A DNA stretch of 64,000 nt from Syntrophales bacterium. GTDB taxonomy: Bacteria; Desulfobacterota; Syntrophia; Syntrophales; UBA8958. Under the pieces are notes generated by a model. That model saw only the letters and a program-made list of their open reading frames with translations, ran no database searches and was not told where the DNA came from. The number at the start of each line of letters is the position of its first letter. Positions within the stretch are counted from its first letter, which is position 1. The DNA is taken from assembly GCA_035448805.1 (NCBI GenBank), contig DAOTJR010000004.1, forward strand, positions 35,848 through 99,847. The letters run 5' to 3'. The position numbers were made by a program, and so were the translations under genes. Below, in pieces: positions 2,619 to 62,541 of this stretch.

Positions 2619-3465
2619 TCACAACGGTACCACCCGGCAGGGCGACGCCGCCCCGTCACCACGCGGCGACGGCGGCGGCGGGACGGCCGGCCGTGGCCTG
2701 TCTCCCCGGGGAAACGCAATCCCGGTGCCGGGGAACGGCGGGGGCACCGGCCCGCCGTCCGTCCCTGCCCTGTCCCCCCCGGGGCTGCTTCGGGCCGGCG
2801 CCGGGGAGCTGGGCATTGCGCTCACGGACGGGCAACTCCGCCTCTTTGCCCTGTACGAGGAGGAGCTGCGGAAATGGAACCGTTTCGTAAGTCTCGTGGC
2901 GATCAAGGATCCCCGCGACATCACCGTCAAGCATTTCCTCGATTCCCTCGCCCTGCTTTCCTTTCTGCCGCAGAAGGGAGGTCTGCGCCTTCTGGACGTC
3001 GCCACCGGGGGGGGCTTTCCCGGACTGCCGGTAAAGATCGCCCGTCCGGATATCGATCTGTATCTCCTGGAATCGGCCCGGAAAAAGGTATCTTTTCTCC
3101 GGGAGGTCATCCGCCGGCTCGACCTCACCGGGGTCGCCGTCATCCACGAGCGGGTGGAAAAGGCCGTGGCGGCAGGGCTGCTGACGGCATCCTGCGATGT
3201 GGTGGTGTCCCGGGCCTCCTTTCCGACGCCGGCGCTCCTGACTATGGGCAGCCATTTTCTCCGTCCCGAAGGCTCGCTGCTGGTGATGCGGGGTCCCCGG
3301 CAGGAGGAAGCGGCGGCGGCCATCGCGTCCGCCTGCCTCGCGACGGGCTTTCACCGGGAAGAAAAAACGGCCTTTTCCCTGCCCCACGGCGGTGACCGCC
3401 GGATAATCATCCGCTACCGGAAGGCCGGGGGCCCCGCAAAAGTAACGTTCCGGTCCGGTCAATAA
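2587..3465 (+). CDS. rsmG: 16S rRNA (guanine527-N7)-methyltransferase RsmG/GidB; start uncertain
   Basis: Core blocks: LTDGQLRLFALYEEELRKWNRFVSLVAIKDPRDITVKHFLDSL and LLDVATGGGFPGLPVKIARPD. The first ~65 codons of the ORF are a Gly/Pro-rich stretch overlapping the upstream gene. The true start may be internal, for example GTG at 2725. Confidence 0.85.
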   Translation: MSCSTPPTGADHNGTTRQGDAAPSPRGDGGGGTAGRGLSPRGNAIPVPGNGGGTGPPSVPALSPPGLLRAGAGELGIALTDGQLRLFALYEEELRKWNRFVSLVAIKDPRDITVKHFLDSLALLSFLPQKGGLRLLDVATGGGFPGLPVKIARPDIDLYLLESARKKVSFLREVIRRLDLTGVAVIHERVEKAVAAGLLTASCDVVVSRASFPTPALLTMGSHFLRPEGSLLVMRGPRQEEAAAAIASACLATGFHREEKTAFSLPHGGDRRIIIRYRKAGGPAKVTFRSGQ

Positions 3466-3594: not shown

Positions 3595-4365
3595 ATGCGT
3601 AAAATCATCGGCATCGCCAATCAGAAAGGCGGCGTGGGCAAGACCACCACGGCCATCAATCTGGCCGCTTCTCTGGCGGCGGCGGAAAAACGTACCCTCC
3701 TGGTCGATTGCGATTCCCAGGGAAACGCCTCCACCGGGGTCGGCATGGACCGGGCGGAGATCCGGGAACGTAACATCTACCACGGTCTGGTCGGCCAGTG
3801 TTCCCTGGCGGAGATCATCCGTAAGACGGCACTGCCTTTTCTCGATGTGGCACCGGCGGATCAGAATCTCATCGGGGTGGAAATAGAGTTCGTGTCGATG
3901 GTGAACCGGGAAAAGAGACTGCGTCTTCTCCTTAAAGATTTAAACGAGGATTATCAATATGTTATAATTGATTGCCCTCCTTCTTTGGGCTTTTTGACTA
4001 TCAACGCCCTGGCGGCGGCGGACAGTCTTATCGTCCCCCTGCAATGTGAGTATTTCGCCATGGAAGGTCTCGGCAATCTCCTCAACACCGTCCGCCTGGT
4101 CCGGCAGAGTTTCAATCCGGACCTGACCCTCGGGGGGATTCTGCTGACGATGTTCGATGCCCGGAACCTCCTGTCCCACCGGGTCAGTGAGGATGTTAGG
4201 CAGCATTTCGGCCGCCGGGTTTTCGATACGGTCATCCCCAGGAATGTGCGTCTGTCCGAGTGCCCGAGTCACGGGCTCCCCATTATCCTCTACGACATCA
4301 AGTCCCGCGGCGCCGCAGCCTATATGGAACTGGCCCGGGAGATCCTACAAAACGGGAGGTTGTAA
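3595..4365 (+). CDS. parA: Chromosome partitioning ATPase ParA/Soj
   Basis: Deviant Walker A motif in MRKIIGIANQKGGVGKTTTAINLAASLA, followed by LLVDCDSQGNAS. 256 aa, immediately upstream of parB. Confidence 0.92.
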   Translation: MRKIIGIANQKGGVGKTTTAINLAASLAAAEKRTLLVDCDSQGNASTGVGMDRAEIRERNIYHGLVGQCSLAEIIRKTALPFLDVAPADQNLIGVEIEFVSMVNREKRLRLLLKDLNEDYQYVIIDCPPSLGFLTINALAAADSLIVPLQCEYFAMEGLGNLLNTVRLVRQSFNPDLTLGGILLTMFDARNLLSHRVSEDVRQHFGRRVFDTVIPRNVRLSECPSHGLPIILYDIKSRGAAAYMELAREILQNGRL

Positions 4366-5228
4366 TGTCGGCAAAACCATCCCTCGGTAAGGGCTTGGGG
4401 GCGATGTTCCCCGATCTCCTCACCGACCTGGACAACAGAGCCGCCTTCATCATGTGCGGCATCGAGGAGTTGACCCCAAACCGTTTCCAGCCCCGTAAGA
4501 GCTTTTCCGAAAAGGAGCAGCGAGAGCTGGTCGAATCTATTAAAAAAAGCGGTATCATCCAGCCGATCGTCGCCCGGAAAAAGGAACGGGGATATGAGAT
4601 CATCGTGGGCGAACGACGGTGGCGGGCCGCGCAGCAGGCCGGCCTCAAGGAGGTGCCGGTCATCGTCCGCGGTGCGGAAGATCAGGAAATTGCGGAGCTT
4701 TCTCTAATCGAGAATCTTCAGCGGGAGTCCCTGAACCCGATCGAAGAGGCGGAGGCATACCAGATCCTGACCCGGCAATTCGGTATGCTCCAGGAAGAGA
4801 TTGCCGCCCGGATCGGTAAGGACCGCTCGACCGTGGCCAACACCCTCCGGCTGTTGAAGCTCCCCGGGGAGGTGAAAAAAGCGCTGGCGGCAAAAACGAT
4901 CACCAGCGGCCATGCCCGGGCCCTGCTGTCCCTGGATGAACCGGCGGAACAACTACAGGCGCTGCAGTTGATCACCGCCAGGGAACTCAACGTCCGGGAG
5001 GCGGAACGGCTGGTCGCCCATATCAAGAAGGCGGCCGCGAAAACACCGAAAAAAGGTATGAAAAAGAGTGTTTATATCCTCGATATGGAACGAAGATTGA
5101 CGGAGCGACTTATGGCGGCGGTACGAATCAGGCCGGGCAACCGTGCGGGAACGATCGAGATTCGCTTCTCTTCCGGTGACGATCTGAACCGTCTTTTTAA
5201 ATTGTTGAACGACATCGGTAATTTGTAA
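4365..5228 (+). CDS. parB: Chromosome partitioning protein ParB/Spo0J
   Basis: The ATG at 4365 overlaps the parA stop by 1 nt (TAATG). Blocks: MSAKPSLGKGLGAMF, the ParB box GERRWRAAQQAGL, and the HTH region QEEIAARIGKDRSTVANTLRLLKLP. Confidence 0.9.
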   Translation: MSAKPSLGKGLGAMFPDLLTDLDNRAAFIMCGIEELTPNRFQPRKSFSEKEQRELVESIKKSGIIQPIVARKKERGYEIIVGERRWRAAQQAGLKEVPVIVRGAEDQEIAELSLIENLQRESLNPIEEAEAYQILTRQFGMLQEEIAARIGKDRSTVANTLRLLKLPGEVKKALAAKTITSGHARALLSLDEPAEQLQALQLITARELNVREAERLVAHIKKAAAKTPKKGMKKSVYILDMERRLTERLMAAVRIRPGNRAGTIEIRFSSGDDLNRLFKLLNDIGNL

Positions 5229-5243
5229 TCTTGACGGTTTTCG

Positions 5244-5252
5244 TGTGGATCA
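5244..5252. promoter_or_regulatory. DnaA-box-like 9-mer (TGTGGATCA; 1 mismatch to TGTGGATAA)
   Basis: Seen in the parB-dnaA spacer, about 90 nt upstream of the likely dnaA start. This is the classic position for dnaA autoregulation. Confidence 0.35.
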
Positions 5253-5309
5253 ACTTAAGCAGGGACGGGTCGAAATCGGCAAATTAAATTCAACAAAATC
5301 ATCAACATG

Positions 5310-5318
5310 TGTTGATAA
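5310..5318. promoter_or_regulatory. DnaA-box-like 9-mer (TGTTGATAA; 1 mismatch to TGTGGATAA)
   Basis: Lies about 25 nt upstream of the TTG 5342 start of dnaA. It is the second box-like site in the same spacer. Confidence 0.3.
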
Positions 5319-5341
5319 AGGTGTTTACAAGGGGTTGTGAA

Positions 5342-6703
5342 TTGGACCAAAAATGGAAGGAAATATTTAATATCATTAAAGAAAATGTCGATGAGCATAA
5401 TTTCGATACCTGGATAAAGCCCCTCAAGATTATGTCCATGGACGAGCAGACCGTCCGCTTTTCCGTACCCAACCGCTTCTTTCGCGACTGGCTGGAGGAA
5501 AACCACCTGCGGGTGATCGCCGATTCCTTCCGGGCCGCCACGGGCCGCACTTATCAAATCGATTTCGTCATCACCCAGGAAAAGAAGGCTCCGGAGAAGG
5601 CATCCCCCGCCGCCCTGCCGGACCGGGAAGTCCGCACGGCCAGGAAAAGCAGCGCCGCCAGACAGTCGACGACGCTGAACCCCAAATACTCCTTCGCGCG
5701 CTTCGTCATCGGTGCCTCGAATCAATTCGCCCATGCCGCGGCTATGGCCGTGGCGGAACAGGCCGAACAGACCACCAAAAGCTACAACCCCCTGTTCATC
5801 TATGGGGGGGTAGGGCTGGGAAAGACCCATTTGCTCAATGCCATCGGGCTGAAGGTCCTGGACCTCCACCCGCACATGAACGTCGTTTACGTCTCCGCGG
5901 AATCCTTCATGAATGAATTGATCAACTGCATCCGCTTCGACAAGATGCCCGGCTTCCGGGACAAGTATCGCAACATCGACTGTCTGCTCATGGACGACAT
6001 TCAGTTCATCGCCGGCAAGGAGAGGACGCAGGAGGAATTTTTTCACACCTTCAACACCCTCCACGACGCGGGCAAGCAAATCGTCGTCACCAGCGATAAA
6101 TTCCCCAAGGAAATCCCCAATCTGGAAAGCAGGATCCGCAACCGTTTCGAGTGGGGACTGATCGCCGATATCCAGCCGCCCGACATCGAGACCAAAGTGG
6201 CGATTGTCGAAAAAAAGGCCAATGAAAACAACATCGATCTGCCGGCGAACGTCTCCTACTACATCGCCACAAACGCCGAGTCCAACATCCGGGAGCTGGA
6301 GGGTTTTCTGTTGCGGATCGTCGCCTATTCCTCCCTAAAGCACCGGGAAATCGACATCGACCTGGTCCGGGATGTCCTCAAACACATGATCCGCACCAAC
6401 TCCAGACAGGAGCTGTCCATCGACGACATCATCAAGGTTGTCGGGTCCAAATACGGGGTCAAGGCCGCCGATGTAAAATCTCACAAGAAAAACAAGAATA
6501 TCGTCGCCGCCCGCCAGATGTGCATGTATCTGGCGAGAAAATTCACCAACGCCTCGTTCCCCGACATCGGGGAACGGATCGGCGGACGCGATCACTCGAC
6601 CGTCATCTATGCCTGCAAGAAATTGACCGGCATGATGGAAAACGACAGAAAGCTTAAGAACCTCTGTGAAGAGCTCGAAGAGGCATTGAACAACATCAGT
6701 TAA
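5342..6703 (+). CDS. dnaA: Chromosomal replication initiator DnaA
   Basis: Blocks: FDTWIKPL at the N-terminus, AAA+ Walker A in NPLFIYGGVGLGKTHLL, the Walker B region LLMDDIQF, and the C-terminal DNA-binding block GGRDHSTVIYA. TTG 5342 has an AAGGGG Shine-Dalgarno 7 nt upstream. The ORF track opens at GTG 5309, which is an alternative start. Confidence 0.95.
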   Translation: MDQKWKEIFNIIKENVDEHNFDTWIKPLKIMSMDEQTVRFSVPNRFFRDWLEENHLRVIADSFRAATGRTYQIDFVITQEKKAPEKASPAALPDREVRTARKSSAARQSTTLNPKYSFARFVIGASNQFAHAAAMAVAEQAEQTTKSYNPLFIYGGVGLGKTHLLNAIGLKVLDLHPHMNVVYVSAESFMNELINCIRFDKMPGFRDKYRNIDCLLMDDIQFIAGKERTQEEFFHTFNTLHDAGKQIVVTSDKFPKEIPNLESRIRNRFEWGLIADIQPPDIETKVAIVEKKANENNIDLPANVSYYIATNAESNIRELEGFLLRIVAYSSLKHREIDIDLVRDVLKHMIRTNSRQELSIDDIIKVVGSKYGVKAADVKSHKKNKNIVAARQMCMYLARKFTNASFPDIGERIGGRDHSTVIYACKKLTGMMENDRKLKNLCEELEEALNNIS

Positions 6704-13861: not shown

Positions 13862-13893
13862 GGAAGAACCGCAAGTGATTCCGGAGGGATAAA
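13862..13893 (+). repeat. 32-nt motif GGAAGAACCGCAAGTGATTCCGGAGGGATAAA (copy 1), immediately 5' of the rtcB ATG
   Basis: 29/32 identical to 18530-18561. It contains the GGAGGG Shine-Dalgarno of rtcB. Confidence 0.75.
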
Positions 13894-18124: not shown

Positions 18125-18487
18125 GGGAGCCCTTGAGGCAATAACTTGTTGTATATATAGAGTTTATGTCTGAAAACGGCGCCAAGCCCCGCGTGGAAAT
18201 CGGACAGGAATGTTCAAACAGGAACGATATTGACAAATATGTAGCGACGACTGTCTCCGGGCCGACGGGAAATCGGCTGTCGACAACTCCTCCCCGCGTT
18301 GAGACTTGCGAACGTCCGCCGCTCCGCTCCTGTCCCGCGGATGGTCTTCACGATGAATTGTCATGTTGGTCCAACACCCGCAAACTTTGAAAATAACTTA
18401 AGGAGGCCACCCCGGTGTGTTTTCATACCAACAGGAAAGCGGACAATTCTATTTGCTCTTCACACCCGGGGCAGGATGTTGTGTCAG

Positions 18488-18529: not shown

Positions 18530-18561
18530 GGAAGAACCGCAAGCGATTTAGGAGGGATAAA
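18530..18561 (+). repeat. 32-nt motif GGAAGAACCGCAAGCGATTTAGGAGGGATAAA (copy 2), at the predicted 5' end of the hybrid-kinase leader
   Basis: 29/32 identical to 13862-13893. It starts about 7 nt after the TGTAAT -10 box and lies about 100 nt upstream of the kinase ATG. Confidence 0.75.
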
Positions 18562-31121: not shown

Positions 31122-31379
31122 ATCAATCCTTCACGAGCGCATTGTCCGGTGAAATCCACTTGGAGACACGCCGGTATGTTCCAAGCACAAAAAAAGGGAG
31201 GCCGCGGGTTTTCAGCGGCTAAAGAAGGGCAACCGTTTATACGCAGCGGCGGAATTATTTGCGCATGAATATGACGTCGCCGATTCTAAAGAACCTTCAA
31301 CATGCGCATTTATTGATGTCGTTGTGTATAGGAAGCGCAGCTATGTCCGTTTTTATCCATAAAGCGGGGGGAATAAGCG

Positions 31380-32456: not shown

Positions 32457-33023
32457 TCAGTTGGTTTTCATGACGGCCAGGAGGCGGCGTTCGATCTCGT
32501 CCCTGGGCAGGGCGCCGACGGCGCGGCTGAGGAGCTTCCCTTCCCGGAAGAAGAGCAGGGTGGGGATATTGCGGATGTCGTACTGCGCGGCGGTGACGGG
32601 GTTTTCATCCACGTTCAGTTTGGCGATCCTGACCCCGCCGGCGTATTTTGCCGCCAGTTCCTCGAGGATGGGGGCCACCATCCGGCAGGGGGCGCACCAG
32701 GGGGCCCAGCAATCGACGATAACGGTTCCCGCCGCCGTGAGCACTTCCCGGGCGAAGGCGGCGTCGGTAATGTCGAAGGGCTTGCCGGTATCGCCGCTGA
32801 CCACCAGGGGGGCCCCGCAGCGGCCGCAGCGGGGCCGCTCGTTGAGGCGCGTCTCCGGCATGCGGTTTTTTGTCCCGCAGCTCAGGCAGCGGATGATCAT
32901 ATCGTCCAGGGAGGCCCCGCACCGGCCGCAGCTTGGCCGGTCCTGCATCCTCTCCCGGGGGATGCGGTTTTTTGTCCCGCAGTTCAGACAGCGGACGATG
33001 ATTTGTTCTTCCGGTCCGGACAT
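32457..33023 (-). CDS. trxC: Thioredoxin with two tandem N-terminal CxxC...CxxC zinc-ribbon modules (Trx2/TrxC-like)
   Basis: ATG 33023. Two ~31-aa repeats: IIVRCLNCGTKNRIPRERMQDRPSCGRCGASL and MIIRCLSCGTKNRMPETRLNERPRCGRCGAPL. A thioredoxin fold with WAPWCAPCR follows. The ORF-track start at 33569 runs through the upstream gene in another frame. Confidence 0.85.
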   Translation of the reverse strand: MSGPEEQIIVRCLNCGTKNRIPRERMQDRPSCGRCGASLDDMIIRCLSCGTKNRMPETRLNERPRCGRCGAPLVVSGDTGKPFDITDAAFAREVLTAAGTVIVDCWAPWCAPCRMVAPILEELAAKYAGGVRIAKLNVDENPVTAAQYDIRNIPTLLFFREGKLLSRAVGALPRDEIERRLLAVMKTN

Positions 33024-37148: not shown

Positions 37149-37364
37149 CGCCGCCGGTCCGGGGGCCGGTGGCGATACGGTTAGGAAACCCCGGGTTCGT
37201 AAGGGGCGCACCGGCGGATGTACGGCTCGTGACGGTGTCCCGTCGCAACTCACTCTTCATCCCGAGGCGGCACCGGTGAAAGGTGAAAATGACATAAAGA
37301 AACCGACGGGATACATGCTGATCAAAACCGCCCCGCAGGGAGGGGAGAGGGGAAAGGAGGGCTT

Positions 37365-47709: not shown

Positions 47710-48051
47710 TCAGACCCTGCCGAAGTCATCCGCGATTCTTTCGATGTCGTCTTCTCCGAAGTAATCCCCGGTCTGCACCTCGATGAAGACCACATTTTCG
47801 GAGCCCCGGTTGGCGAGGCGGTGGCTGGCGCCGGCGGGAATATCCACCGCCCGGCCCGGGAGCAGGGGTATTTCCTGATCGTCCAGGGTTGTCAGGGCCT
47901 GTCCCCGGATCAGGTACCAGTGTTCGGAACGGTGTCGGTGGCGCTGCAGACTCAGGCGCCGGCCAGGATAGACGGTGATGCGCTTGACCTTGTGATCGGC
48001 GGCGTCGGTCAGGACCTCGTAGTACCCCCAGGGGCGATGATCGGTTGGCAT
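47710..48051 (-). CDS. Stand-alone cupin, mannose-6-phosphate isomerase type II C-terminal-domain-like
   Basis: RPWGYYEVL...KVKRITVYPGRRLSLQRHRHRSEHWYLIRG...IEVQTGDYFGEDDIERIADDFGR matches the ManC C-terminal cupin pattern. ATG 48051; the ORF-track start at 48390 is an extension. Confidence 0.78.
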   Translation of the reverse strand: MPTDHRPWGYYEVLTDAADHKVKRITVYPGRRLSLQRHRHRSEHWYLIRGQALTTLDDQEIPLLPGRAVDIPAGASHRLANRGSENVVFIEVQTGDYFGEDDIERIADDFGRV

Positions 48052-48323
48052 GGTGTTTTTCTCCTCCCCGGCTGCAATAGAATTTCTCCACCCGGCACCG
48101 GGCGGCTTGTCGCCGCCTTTCGGTTCGCCGGACCCCCCTTCTGATCGGCGGCGGCAAGTTTTCCCGGTAGGACGGGACCACCCGCGTCCGGCGGCAGGGA
48201 CGGAAATTCCACATACCACAGGGGGCGGGGTTTGCATAGCCATGGTGAGGGCCCGGGAGGGTTGTTTTACCGCCGGGGAAAGTTTTCCCCGCCGCCGGTC
48301 TTTTTGCTGAGAGCTGTTACATG

Positions 48324-48404
48324 AGCATGAAAATACACCGGGGTGATTTCCAGAAACCATTTTCATCGTTCCCGGGTGCCGCCCCGGCATGAAAATTTAT
48401 ATGT
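48324..48404 (+). repeat. 81-nt structured repeat, copy A (74/81 identical to 57080-57160)
   Basis: Contains ATGAAAAT (48327), its complement ATTTTCAT (48359) and ATGAAAAT again (48389). It also has a 16-bp near-palindrome TGATTTCCAGAAACCA (48344-48359), a GC hairpin CCGGG-TGCCG-CCCGG, and ends in AAAATTTATATGT. Confidence 0.85.
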
Positions 48405-48444
48405 GTCTTGACGGCGTCGCCAAAACTCAATATGCTCCCCCGTC

Positions 48445-49125
48445 ATGGACCTGACCTACGAGCTGATCCGGAGCGCCAAACGCCGCAAGACCATGTCCCT
48501 GGTCGTCATGCCGGGGGGGGTGATCGTCATCCGGGCGCCCCGCCATGTCCCCTCCGGGGAGGTGGACGGATTTTTCCGCCGCAAACGGCCCTGGATCGAG
48601 AAGAAACTGGCGGACCTCGAAGGGCGCCGCGCAACCTGGGGAACGGACGGCCGGGGCGGGGGCAGGGTCCTTTTTCTTGGGGTCTCCTATCCGGTGGTGG
48701 TCAGGGACGTTGACGGTCCGGCCGGCGGCCTGTCCTTCGACGGCATACGGTTCCTCCTGGCCCCGGGGGCCGGCGACGGGAGACGGGAGATGCTGCAGGC
48801 CTGGTATTGCGGACAGGCGGCTTCTTTCCTTCCCGGCCGGGTCAAATATTTCGAGGAACTATGGGGCTGCCGGTCCCGTTCGGTGCGGATCAGCAAAGCG
48901 CGGTCGCGATGGGGCTCGTGTTCCGCCGACAATCGCCTGGCCTTTTCCTGGCGGCTCATGATGGCCCCGCCCGCCGTGATCGATTATGTGGTCGTCCATG
49001 AACTGGCCCATCTGCGGGAGAAGAACCATTCGCCGCGCTTCTGGGCCCTCGTGGGAGAGATGTGTCCCGATTACCGGCAGTTGCGGCGCCGGCTGAATAC
49101 ATTGGGGACGGGGGCCTTGTTATGA
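48445..49125 (+). CDS. M48-family/YgjP-like (DUF45) zinc metallopeptidase
   Basis: N-terminus YELIRSAKRRKTMSLVV. HExxH lies in VVHELAHLREKNHSPRFWALV. 226 aa. Confidence 0.8.
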   Translation: MDLTYELIRSAKRRKTMSLVVMPGGVIVIRAPRHVPSGEVDGFFRRKRPWIEKKLADLEGRRATWGTDGRGGGRVLFLGVSYPVVVRDVDGPAGGLSFDGIRFLLAPGAGDGRREMLQAWYCGQAASFLPGRVKYFEELWGCRSRSVRISKARSRWGSCSADNRLAFSWRLMMAPPAVIDYVVVHELAHLREKNHSPRFWALVGEMCPDYRQLRRRLNTLGTGALL

Positions 49126-56594: not shown

Positions 56595-57001
56595 TCACCC
56601 CAGCCGATAACTTCGTAGCCCTTTGTACTCAGGCAGCGGTTTACGAAGGATTTATACAGCGGACTCGGTTCGGAGGCCTTGATGACCCCGGAAACCAGGC
56701 CGGCGGCCGCTCCGGCCGCCGCCCCCACCCCCAGGTCCGACCCGAAGCTTCCCCGCACCGCCCCGACGGCCCCGCCGACCACGGCCCCGCCGGCCCCGCC
56801 GATGACCGTATCCTTGGCGACGGTCTTGGCGGCGTCGGATTTAACATAGGCCTCCGCCTGTTGCCGGCAGTCCGCGATATCCCGATCCGCCTGCTCCTGC
56901 CCTACCGTCTTCAGGTAGGCGTTGGGATAGAGCACGGGACCGGAGGCGCAACCGCCCAGGAACATGATCAGGGCAATGGTGAGACAAAAAAGCCTTTTCA
57001 T
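56591..57001 (-). CDS. Glycine-zipper lipoprotein
   Basis: Lipobox FLGGC. The Gly-zipper segment is VIGGAGGAVVGGAVGAVRGSFGSDLGVGAAAGAAAGLVSGV. 136 aa. It is the first gene of the minus-strand operon. Confidence 0.65.
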   Translation of the reverse strand: MKRLFCLTIALIMFLGGCASGPVLYPNAYLKTVGQEQADRDIADCRQQAEAYVKSDAAKTVAKDTVIGGAGGAVVGGAVGAVRGSFGSDLGVGAAAGAAAGLVSGVIKASEPSPLYKSFVNRCLSTKGYEVIGWGD

Positions 57002-57079
57002 CGCTGACTCCTTTTATCGACCCCCGCCGGGGGGGGACTTTCTGAAGAGGGAAAACCGCCTTTCCCTCACAAATGCGTT

Positions 57080-57160
57080 AGTATGAAAAGACACCGGGGT
57101 GATTTCCATAAATCATTTTCATCGCTCGCCGGTGCCGCCCCGGCATGAAAATTTATATGT
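57080..57160 (+). repeat. 81-nt structured repeat, copy B (74/81 identical to 48324-48404)
   Basis: It has the same three ATGAAAA(T/G)/ATTTTCAT modules. The internal palindrome is perfect here (TGATTTCCATAAATCA, 57100-57115). It lies between the rsmB stop (57374) and the lipoprotein-operon start (57001). Confidence 0.85.
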
Positions 57161-57373
57161 CATTGATCTGCAACGGTTTATCATTAGCGGGGCCGCTGCG
57201 GGCACGGTGGAGCGCGTCCCGCCGTTTTCATCCTGCTTGGTGACGGCGTCCCGTCATGAGGGTTTCATTCGCAGACGTTTCCCGTAAATTTTCATGTCCG
57301 GGCGGTACCCGGTCACGATGCAAATCTCCTGGTCGAGCCGTCTATGTGAGGTACAAGATGAACCCGTAAAACG

Positions 57374-62140: not shown

Positions 62141-62541
62141 GATTAAATCCCCGGGCCGGCCGCCGGTGAAGGGGGAACGTGACGGCCTACCGTGGCCGCC
62201 GTCGGTACGGACGGCGAAGAACGACGATGAAGACCGGCGGCGGTCAGGAGCATCGCCGGGCCGTGACCTTCTTCCCGGATGCTTCTTTCCGGATTCCCGG
62301 TACCTGGATCCCTGTCCACAGCCATGGGCAGCTCGCAAATCCTTCCTGTCGGAGGACGATGCTGGCGGGTGTCCACGGGCAGGAAAATTTATGTGAAAAT
62401 GTCGGCAAGAGTGCGAATATTTTTACCTTTTGTTTTACGCCCGCCCGGGACTGGGGGGGTTGACGGCAACGCGGGGACCCGACAGGGCCCGGAAACAATG
62501 CCTCGGCCGCGGCGGGGACGATAATGAGGGAAGGAAGGGGT

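Follow-up and report, generated by a model that had tools for sequence, protein, structure and literature searches.

A dispersed 78-nt repeat in a Syntrophales genome is probably a MITE-like miniature derivative of an IS110-family insertion sequence

Introduction

What kind of element is an 81-nt sequence that occurs twice between genes, in nearly identical form, with one copy lying close against the promoter of an iron-uptake operon? The question is raised by a 64-kb window of Syntrophales DNA (the whole stretch analysed here, to which positions refer unless another locus is named). The original prediction offered a dispersed regulatory or non-coding RNA element, an activator-binding cassette or a tiny peptide gene. 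We describe the copies of the repeat in the window, its relatives in other assemblies (loci designated L005, L012 and so on), and the full-length elements whose ends it shares. The repeat is ordinary selfish DNA, and not a new RNA, a peptide gene or a regulatory cassette; it is probably a MITE-like, non-autonomous and gene-less miniature derivative of an insertion sequence (IS) of the IS110 family.

Results

Copies of the repeat in the window

The two copies first recognised, at 48324-48404 (copy A) and 57080-57160 (copy B), align without gaps and are identical at 74 of 81 positions (91%). Their similarity ends at both edges, in agreement with the earlier description of the flanks as unrelated. 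When the window was searched with each half of the unit, allowing up to three mismatches, only copies A and B matched, and 100 shuffles gave no matches. The repeat boxes described earlier are present in copy A as ATGAAAAT / ATTTTCAT / ATGAAAAT, although the first box of copy B reads ATGAAAAG. There are eight occurrences of ATGAAAAT in the window against 1.5 expected, and six of the eight lie within or beside copies A and B.

Comparison across the family (see below) gives a unit length of 78 nt, and the copies are listed with these boundaries in Table 1. The window contains three full-length and three partial copies, more than had been seen originally, and every one is intergenic. Copy D was detected in a profile search at 18353-18402(-) (E=1.4e-4), and BLAST extends this match to full length; the family profile places copy E at 37256-37293(-) (E=3.5e-6). 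The partial copy reported at 62377 is real, albeit decayed; its E-value is weak alone, and it is supported by the second module, 'ext', that adjoins it. No link of this type of fragment to priA or dksA was seen at other loci.

Table 1. Copies of the repeat and neighbouring features in the 64-kb window. For the copies, strand is the orientation of the recombinase gene of the parent IS.
Feature	Position	Strand	Description
Copy A	48322..48399	(-)	78 nt, TGAG..TTTA on the + strand
Copy B	57078..57155	(-)	78 nt, TTAG..TTTA
Copy C	57285..57325	(+)	partial, left-end half only; profile E=6.6e-7
Copy D	~18354..18431	(+), i.e. window - strand	full length, diverged, 73% to consensus
Copy E	37256..37302	(+)	decayed partial left-end half, intergenic spacer; 76.6% over 47 nt
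Decayed left-end-half fragment (originally a 'third copy')	62363..62394	(-)	nhmmer E=0.07
'ext' module	62394..62462	(-)	72.5% over 69 nt to L016, E=6.6e-7
Host promoter TTGACG-17-TATGCT and ygjP ATG	48408..48447	(+)	outside the element, which ends 8 nt before the -35 box

Copy A lies in a spacer of 393 nt that separates two divergent genes, one for a small cupin (47710-48051, -) and the other ygjP (48445, +), which is followed by a feoA-feoB fusion. The YgjP protein of this organism is present in 59 assembly blocks. Over 48 nt it is 93.8% identical to the left end of the IS in L035. Its left terminus is mutated, reading TGAGC and not TTAGT, with the core changed from TAA to TCA in the IS orientation, and given this terminus copy A is probably immobile. 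Copy B is found in the gap separating a Gly-zipper lipoprotein gene, which starts at 57001 (-), from the stop codon of rsmB (57374, -), and the same locus is present in a metagenome (L029). Copy C is inverted relative to copy B, 129 nt away; the complementary pairs I1 and I3 stand at 85% and 78%. Directly to the right of copy B, at 57161-57270, is a separate dispersed repeat of ~108 nt, so the right flank of copy B is not unique DNA. Other copies of the ~108-nt repeat, 80-93% identical, occur in both orientations in L039 (three), L022 (two), L012/L030 and L016/L032.

Some further features of the window were observed. The cupin-ygjP spacer has a bulged G+C hairpin followed by a T-run at 48268-48308 (+) (ACCGCCGGGGAAAGTTTTCCCCGCCGCCGGTCTTTTTGCTG), with no + strand gene upstream; it was missed by the terminator scan. 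The motif TTGCATAG.C.TGG..AGGG is present upstream of the cupin gene in two species (window 48233-48255; L040 2794-2816), lying about 180 nt from the start codon in the window and about 30 nt from it in L040. At 32804-33002 there is a tandem direct repeat of 97 nt (78% identity, 102-nt spacing) whose - strand reads MIIRCLSCGTKNRMPE..RCGRCG and resembles two adjacent zinc-ribbon N-termini. A 32-nt repeat with 91% identity, ending GGAGGGATAAA, is shared by 13862-13893 and 18530-18561 and is probably a ribosome-binding region common to two genes.

A family of dispersed units in related assemblies

Sequence collections were scanned with a gapped pattern (one genome per species) and with an exact 22-mer (metagenome contigs), and these requirements bias which copies were seen. 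Four contigs matched the gapped pattern, all of them from Syntrophaceae/Syntrophus metagenome-assembled genomes, and three of these matches lie ~55 nt from a contig end, as is expected of multi-copy repeats. The 22-mer identified 28 loci in metagenome contigs, often near contig ends, and had no match in viral contigs. A unit of 78-79 nt, running from TTAG to TTTA, is present at 10 unrelated loci in Syntrophales/Syntrophaceae-type assemblies (the 79-nt variants are L012 and L018). The neighbours of the 78-nt unit are unrelated genes, in both orientations, and these uniform, dispersed copies with unrelated flanks have the distribution of a MITE-like derivative. Longer forms of 81, 100 and ~135 nt have both termini in common with the 78-nt unit but differ in their centres, and codons of a recombinase C-terminus are kept in two forms, the 100-nt form and a composite in L027.

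A clean filled/empty pair between close strains was not obtained, and two candidate comparisons were rejected. The difference between L016 and L027 is a separate ~75-nt dispersed repeat, mod75, which abuts the element on different sides, and the pair thus gives no boundary information. The difference between L028 and L027 is not an event of the element, being the insertion of an ISL3-like IS.

Both of these additional sequences have features of their own. Mod75 is also present in the window at 31238-31312 (TATAC.CAGCG.CGGAATTATTTGCGCATGAATATG.CGTCGCC.ATTCTAAAGAACCTTCAACATGCG.ATTT); its copies in L016/L021, L027/L028 and L039 are 94.7% identical, and elsewhere it abuts 81-mer copies on either side. 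The ISL3-like IS (L028, oriented, 4217-5586) encodes a 425-aa transposase, has 25-bp perfect terminal inverted repeats (GGGTCATTCGTGTTTAAGTTGAAAG), and sits in the last bases of an 81-mer copy with an 8-bp duplication (AAAATTTA); the L027 locus is otherwise identical, without this IS.

The full-length relative is an IS110-family insertion sequence

In an all-against-all comparison of the loci, L015 and L035 proved to share 1492 nt at 100% identity, a stretch ending 2 nt past the 22-mer, with unrelated flanks; L023 is 86.7% identical to this unit over the same span. The 1.49-kb unit encodes a 412-aa protein on the opposite strand with Pfam domains PF01548 (DEDD_Tnp_IS110, 1e-28) and PF02371 (Transposase_20, 5e-24), and its score of 306 bits for NCBIfam NF033542 ('IS110 family RNA-guided transposase') exceeds the cut-off of 140. 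A recombinase with both a DEDD RuvC-like and a Tnp domain identifies the unit as an IS110-family IS, here called IS-A. In recombinase orientation IS-A begins with TAAATTTTCATGCCGGGGCGGCACCC, has a non-coding left end of 235 nt before the ATG, and continues for only 16 nt beyond the stop codon (..TTTATTTTCTGACTAA). This arrangement, long on the left and short on the right, is the one described for the IS110 group, in which the left end encodes a bridge RNA (PMC11208160).

A search for recombinase homologues listed about 8000, and four further IS relatives were added, with 72-80% recombinase identity (80% for L044). A search of the 64-kb window for an IS110 recombinase gene found none, and Rfam 15 gave only chance matches on the full IS and did not recognise its left-end RNA. 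Readings of the repeat as attC, as dif, or as an IS200/IS605 or omega-RNA element were dropped, the linked gene being an IS110-family recombinase.

The 78-nt unit probably consists of two IS termini

At 90-94% identity, the last ~47-50 nt of copies A and B correspond to the opening ~50 nt of the IS left end, and the first ~15 nt of the unit, TTAGTATGAAAATA, match the reverse complement of the IS right end, which reads TTAGTCAGAAAATA in L035 and TTAGTATGAAAATG in L044. The left terminus TTAGTATGAAAAT matches the right end of the IS in L044/L046, and the corresponding sequence in L035 is TTAGTCAGAAAAT. Both termini are thus held in common with autonomous IS elements, although their exact variants do not occur together in any one of those sampled: none of the sampled full-length IS joins an L035-type left-end start (TAAATTTTCATGCC..) to an L044/L046-type right terminus (ATAC/ATGC-TAA; ..TTTTCAT(A/G)C-TAA), so the exact parent of copies A and B is missing from the sample.

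Read in the recombinase orientation, which is the window - strand for copies A and B, the unit would consist of the outermost ~47-50 nt of the IS left end (TAAATTTTCATGCCGGGGCGGCACCC..GATGAAAATGGTTTAT), a 16-nt centre (GGAAATCACCCCGGTG in IS orientation), and a right-end terminus of ~15 nt (TATTTTCATAC-TAA). The centre has no match in the sampled IS, and the unit is therefore not a simple one-step deletion of L035. At 78 nt and with no ORF bearing a coding signature, the unit is short and has no transposase gene; it lacks both the recombinase gene and the structured non-coding RNA of the parent left end, and is a derivative of an IS110-family IS rather than such an IS in its own right. The ATGAAAAT/ATTTTCAT boxes, like the GCCG-CCC-CGGC hairpin, belong to IS ends and not to a host regulatory RNA.

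Classical terminal inverted repeats and a target-site duplication are not found; neither terminus is an inverted repeat of the other, and only the trinucleotide TTA/TAA recurs at both unit edges. IS110-family elements do not have terminal inverted repeats. Their absence here is what would be expected for this family, and we accordingly use the label 'MITE-like'. That the repeat might match a REP or MITE family had been recognised at the outset, and in substance it does so, as the unit is two IS110-family IS termini.

Left-end RNA segments track both IS termini

The left ends of six IS relatives share a common fold, with three compensatory pairs, in which an outer stem surrounds two stem-loop domains. 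The second domain contains a quartet, GCACGC-[NNNN]-TAA, that tracks the right-end terminus ATTTTC-[NNNN]-TAA in four classes: the left-end and right-end quartets are CGAC and TGAC in L035/L023, ATGC and ATAC in L044/L046, CATG and TATG in L045, and CACG and TACG in L047. This is the behaviour of a left donor guide in the published model (PMC11208160). The first domain varies with the left-end start: TTATAAATTGG goes with TATAAATTTT, and TAATGAATTGG with TAATGAATTG. In full, this domain reads AAAGCCCG-TTATAAAT-TGG in L035 versus -TAATGAAT-TGG in L044, with starts TA|TAAATTTT versus TAATGAATTG. Since the left-end RNA tracks both outer termini, both of the outer sequences lie inside the IS and the boundaries of the element are fixed. 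From this pattern we infer that the left end of IS-A encodes a bridge RNA.

The quartet ATGC of L044/L046 is carried by the miniature copies L012 and A, apart from the mutated core of the latter. Copy D has the left-end start TGAATTGTCATGT, and GTTGG-A-CCAAC replaces GCCG-CCC-CGGC in its small hairpin. The TGAATTGTCATGT start is also found in L044, L046 has ..CCAACACCC, and the terminus variants of copy D are those of the L044/L046 subfamily; as judged from these variants, copy D belongs to a sister subfamily, as do the IS relatives L044/L046.

A second IS at the ends of the units

A second IS110-family element, IS-B, directly follows IS-A in L017 (114-1700), L035 and L005, and is itself followed by another IS-A. 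Its recombinase is 440 aa long and 41% identical to that of IS-A, and its layout, in which ~70 nt precede the start codon and ~200 nt follow the stop, is IS1111-like (long right end, short left end). The 'ext' module is a ~75-nt unit of two IS-B ends that directly follows the 81-mer in L012, L014, L016 and L038, and outside the window it may also come straight after an IS-A terminus; by sequence the copy at 62394-62462 is a miniature derivative of IS-B. IS-B or its miniature form lies precisely at the end of 81-mer/IS-A units at no fewer than eight loci, a placement which suggests that IS-B targets the end of another IS.

The promoter beside copy A

The promoter predicted at 48408-48436, TTGACG-17-TATGCT, was recovered by the promoter scan; 8 nt separate its end from the ATG at 48445, a near-leaderless arrangement. 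Synteny is kept at the orthologous loci of two related species, L040 and L042, whose promoters (span 2955-3003 in both; window span 48405-48447) keep TGTCTTGACGG..(A/C)TATGCT with the ATG 8-9 nt further on. The promoter and its near-leaderless layout are therefore conserved host features, and the conserved 8-9-nt gap between -10 box and ATG in three species would imply a leaderless or near-leaderless ygjP-feoAB transcript. Both orthologous promoters are without the element: homology stops at the right edge of the element, and the spacers are otherwise unalignable, with YgjP 66-68% identical. Insertion of copy A would have replaced G+C-rich DNA, as in the orthologues, with the A+T-rich sequence GAAAATTTATATG, 8 nt upstream of the -35 box. 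It is a matter of speculation whether the element might influence this promoter.

Alternative readings of the repeat

The position of copy A raises the alternative that the element serves, originally or by later co-option, as a host regulatory module, either a promoter-proximal A+T-rich or protein-binding cassette or an sRNA, that controls for example ygjP-feoAB. Its end lies just upstream of a conserved promoter of an iron-uptake operon, it brings A+T-rich DNA to a place where the orthologues are G+C-rich, its TGAAAAT boxes have a sequence that we take to resemble a half-site of delta-proteobacterial Fur boxes, and the small hairpin has two compensatory pairs in copy D. Against this, two orthologous ygjP-feoAB promoters keep -35 box, -10 box and ATG in the absence of the element, which also tells against the proposed activator-binding cassette, and the 78-nt unit occurs beside unrelated genes in either orientation. 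The Fur-box reading, prompted by feoAB downstream, was rejected: the boxes are never in a 7-1-7 arrangement by direct reading of copies A and B, they are absent from the orthologues, and they are part of IS ends. No convincing sigma-54, sigma-32, sigma-E or sigma-70 promoter was seen by eye on either strand of the element, and the scan found only the flanking host promoter; neither strand has a U-run after the hairpin, as an intrinsic or bidirectional terminator would. An RNA fares no better. Rfam has no match to the element, with no match at gathering score in the window and only chance-level matches (E<=1) around both copies. Copies A and B fold differently, and only the - strand of copy A folds beyond shuffles (z = -3.2, against z = -1.0 for copy B). 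Only copy A has the near-palindrome TGATTTCCAGAAACCA, where the family consensus reads TGATTTCCATAAACCA, and the family does not conserve the GC hairpin CCGGG/CCCGG (pairing in 72.6% of cells, the outer pair in 2 of 19 sequences). The smaller GCCG-CCC-CGGC hairpin is conserved across copies, but among the 19 copies the 8-bp arms are almost invariant and hence uninformative, and compensatory change in the small hairpin is confined to one sequence, copy D. As the same hairpin variant is found in the full-length IS L046, these two pairs are a trait of an IS-end subfamily and not evidence for a host RNA. Neither an Rfam match nor covariation thus marks the element as a structured RNA family, and we consider a host regulatory module very unlikely. 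A micro-peptide, in the 22-codon GTG frame or the ATG frame, is less likely still, to the point of being hardly credible. The GTG frame is open in all seven near-identical 78-nt copies, yet the constraint suggested for it disappears in these copies, whose variable columns fall 1:4:5 on codon positions 1:2:3 and whose peptide is altered in five of the seven. Neither third-position bias nor a conserved frame is present: the 79-nt variants L012 and L018 shift the GTG frame, there is an indel in diverged copies, and neither the IS-linked forms nor those of 81, 100 and 135 nt contain the start region of the peptide. In copies A and B the GTG and ATG starts lack an upstream Shine-Dalgarno sequence, and the ATG frame closes inside the element, while a downstream ATG at 48389 opens peptides with only MKIY in common.

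A different alternative accepts the IS but reverses its relationship to the repeat, which would be a REP-like palindromic landing pad into which IS110-family elements insert, the apparent termini being target halves that flank the IS. IS110 elements are known to target repeated palindromes (PMC11208160), and the flank of such an insertion, if conserved, can be mistaken for an end of the IS. IS621, ISPpu9 and ISPpu10 insert preferentially into REP sequences. The alternative inner boundaries in L035 are bordered by an 8-nt direct repeat, TAGTTTAT. The 81-mer units are moreover clearly targets of another IS, as seen from IS-B and its miniature form, and one copy carries the inserted ISL3-like IS. 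However, the centre-less palindrome that such a pad calls for (TTAGT.AGAAAAT..ATTTTCATCG..TTTA, with nothing between the arms) is found in none of 21 distinct copies. The 16-nt centre seen in the 78-nt form is missing from IS-bearing copies, which rules out a conservative insertion of the IS into such a unit, and the inner direct repeat is absent in L023. Further, the left-end RNA quartet tracks the outer terminus (NNNN-TAA) and not the stop-codon region of the recombinase, and another left-end RNA segment tracks the outer left-end start. A landing pad is in our view improbable.

Discussion

We favour the reading of the repeat as a miniature derivative of an IS110-family IS. It draws on the termini shared with the IS, the uniform length at unrelated loci, the IS110-family recombinase in the long form, and a guide-like covariation that fixes the element boundaries. 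A DEDD recombinase of this family, together with a bridge-type RNA, would recognise, at both termini, a few bases to the left and right of the TAA core; supplied in trans from a full-length element, in the same genome or in the community, it could have excised and inserted the miniature element. An excision circle would join the outer termini as ..TTTTCATAC-TAA-ATTTTCATGCC.. (also ..ATAC-TAA to ATTTTCATGCC..). By eye, no convincing -35/-10 pair is reconstituted across a circle junction under either boundary model. Trans-mobilisation, and any current activity of the miniature element, are inferred.

A more ambitious version would hold that the 78-nt units are live, cargo-less donors for bridge-RNA-guided recombinases, with a left-end start and a right-end terminus derived from different IS subfamilies, and that the copy A insertion may change iron-uptake expression. 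We regard this as unlikely. Were it true, donor recognition would be modular in nature, miniature elements could be moved by mixed or reprogrammed guides, and a single insertion would have brought an A+T-rich arm right up to the -35 box of ygjP-feoAB, whose promoter is leaderless.

What had been seen at this locus as a dispersed repeat with internal inverted repeats, a further fragment at 62377 and a copy abutting a promoter has stood; the functions proposed for it have found no support. The apparent oddity is cleared up: the 'structured repeat' is two IS ends and no new RNA or peptide. Miniature derivatives of IS110-family (bridge-RNA) elements are barely documented, and our literature search found one ISfinder entry, MITEPpu9. 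The Syntrophales lineage offers several size classes, two nested IS types, and a natural covariation of a left-end RNA segment with the terminus that could help define the minimal donor requirements of bridge recombinases. The units also explain contig breaks in Syntrophales metagenome-assembled genomes, and should be masked before searches for sRNAs or promoters.

The nearest described case, and a precedent for a MITE-like IS110 derivative, is MITEPpu9 of ISPpu9 in Pseudomonas putida, which occurs beside the IS and also alone elsewhere in the chromosome, and has been proposed to be mobile with transposase supplied in trans (PMC12288879). MITEPpu9 differs in containing an expressed sRNA gene, ssr9, and in its location within REP sequences (PMC12288879); the present element is much shorter (78 nt), gives no sign of an RNA gene, is unrelated to it in sequence, and belongs to a Syntrophales lineage. 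The parent IS resembles the IS621/IS110 group (PMC11208160, PMC11208158) in its DEDD/Tnp recombinase, its long left and short right ends, and a conserved two-domain left-end RNA in which a segment of the second domain matches the right-end terminus and core, as a left donor guide does. It has no sequence similarity to IS621, its core is apparently TA(A) and not CT, and its bridge RNA is deduced from six sequences; the 78-nt unit, unlike IS621-type elements, has neither recombinase nor RNA. IS-B and 'ext' are reminiscent of IS4321/IS5075 (IS1111 group), which, as cited in PMC11208160, target the terminal repeats of Tn21-family transposons: they too sit exactly at the terminus of another mobile element at many independent loci, although the apparent target, as judged from positions, is an IS110-type element end or its miniature form and not a Tn3-family inverted repeat.

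The 78-nt unit is also like REP/REPIN sequences and classical MITEs (Correia, ERIC, RUP) in being short, intergenic, imperfectly palindromic and multi-copy, in breaking assemblies, and in lying sometimes beside promoters. Hallmarks of REP/REPIN sequences are an association with RAYT (Y1 transposase) and inverted doublets of a 20-40-nt palindrome. The unit differs from these classes in that it has no long terminal inverted repeats and no evident multi-base target duplication, and in that its termini are those of an IS with a DEDD recombinase, which moves by site-specific recombination.
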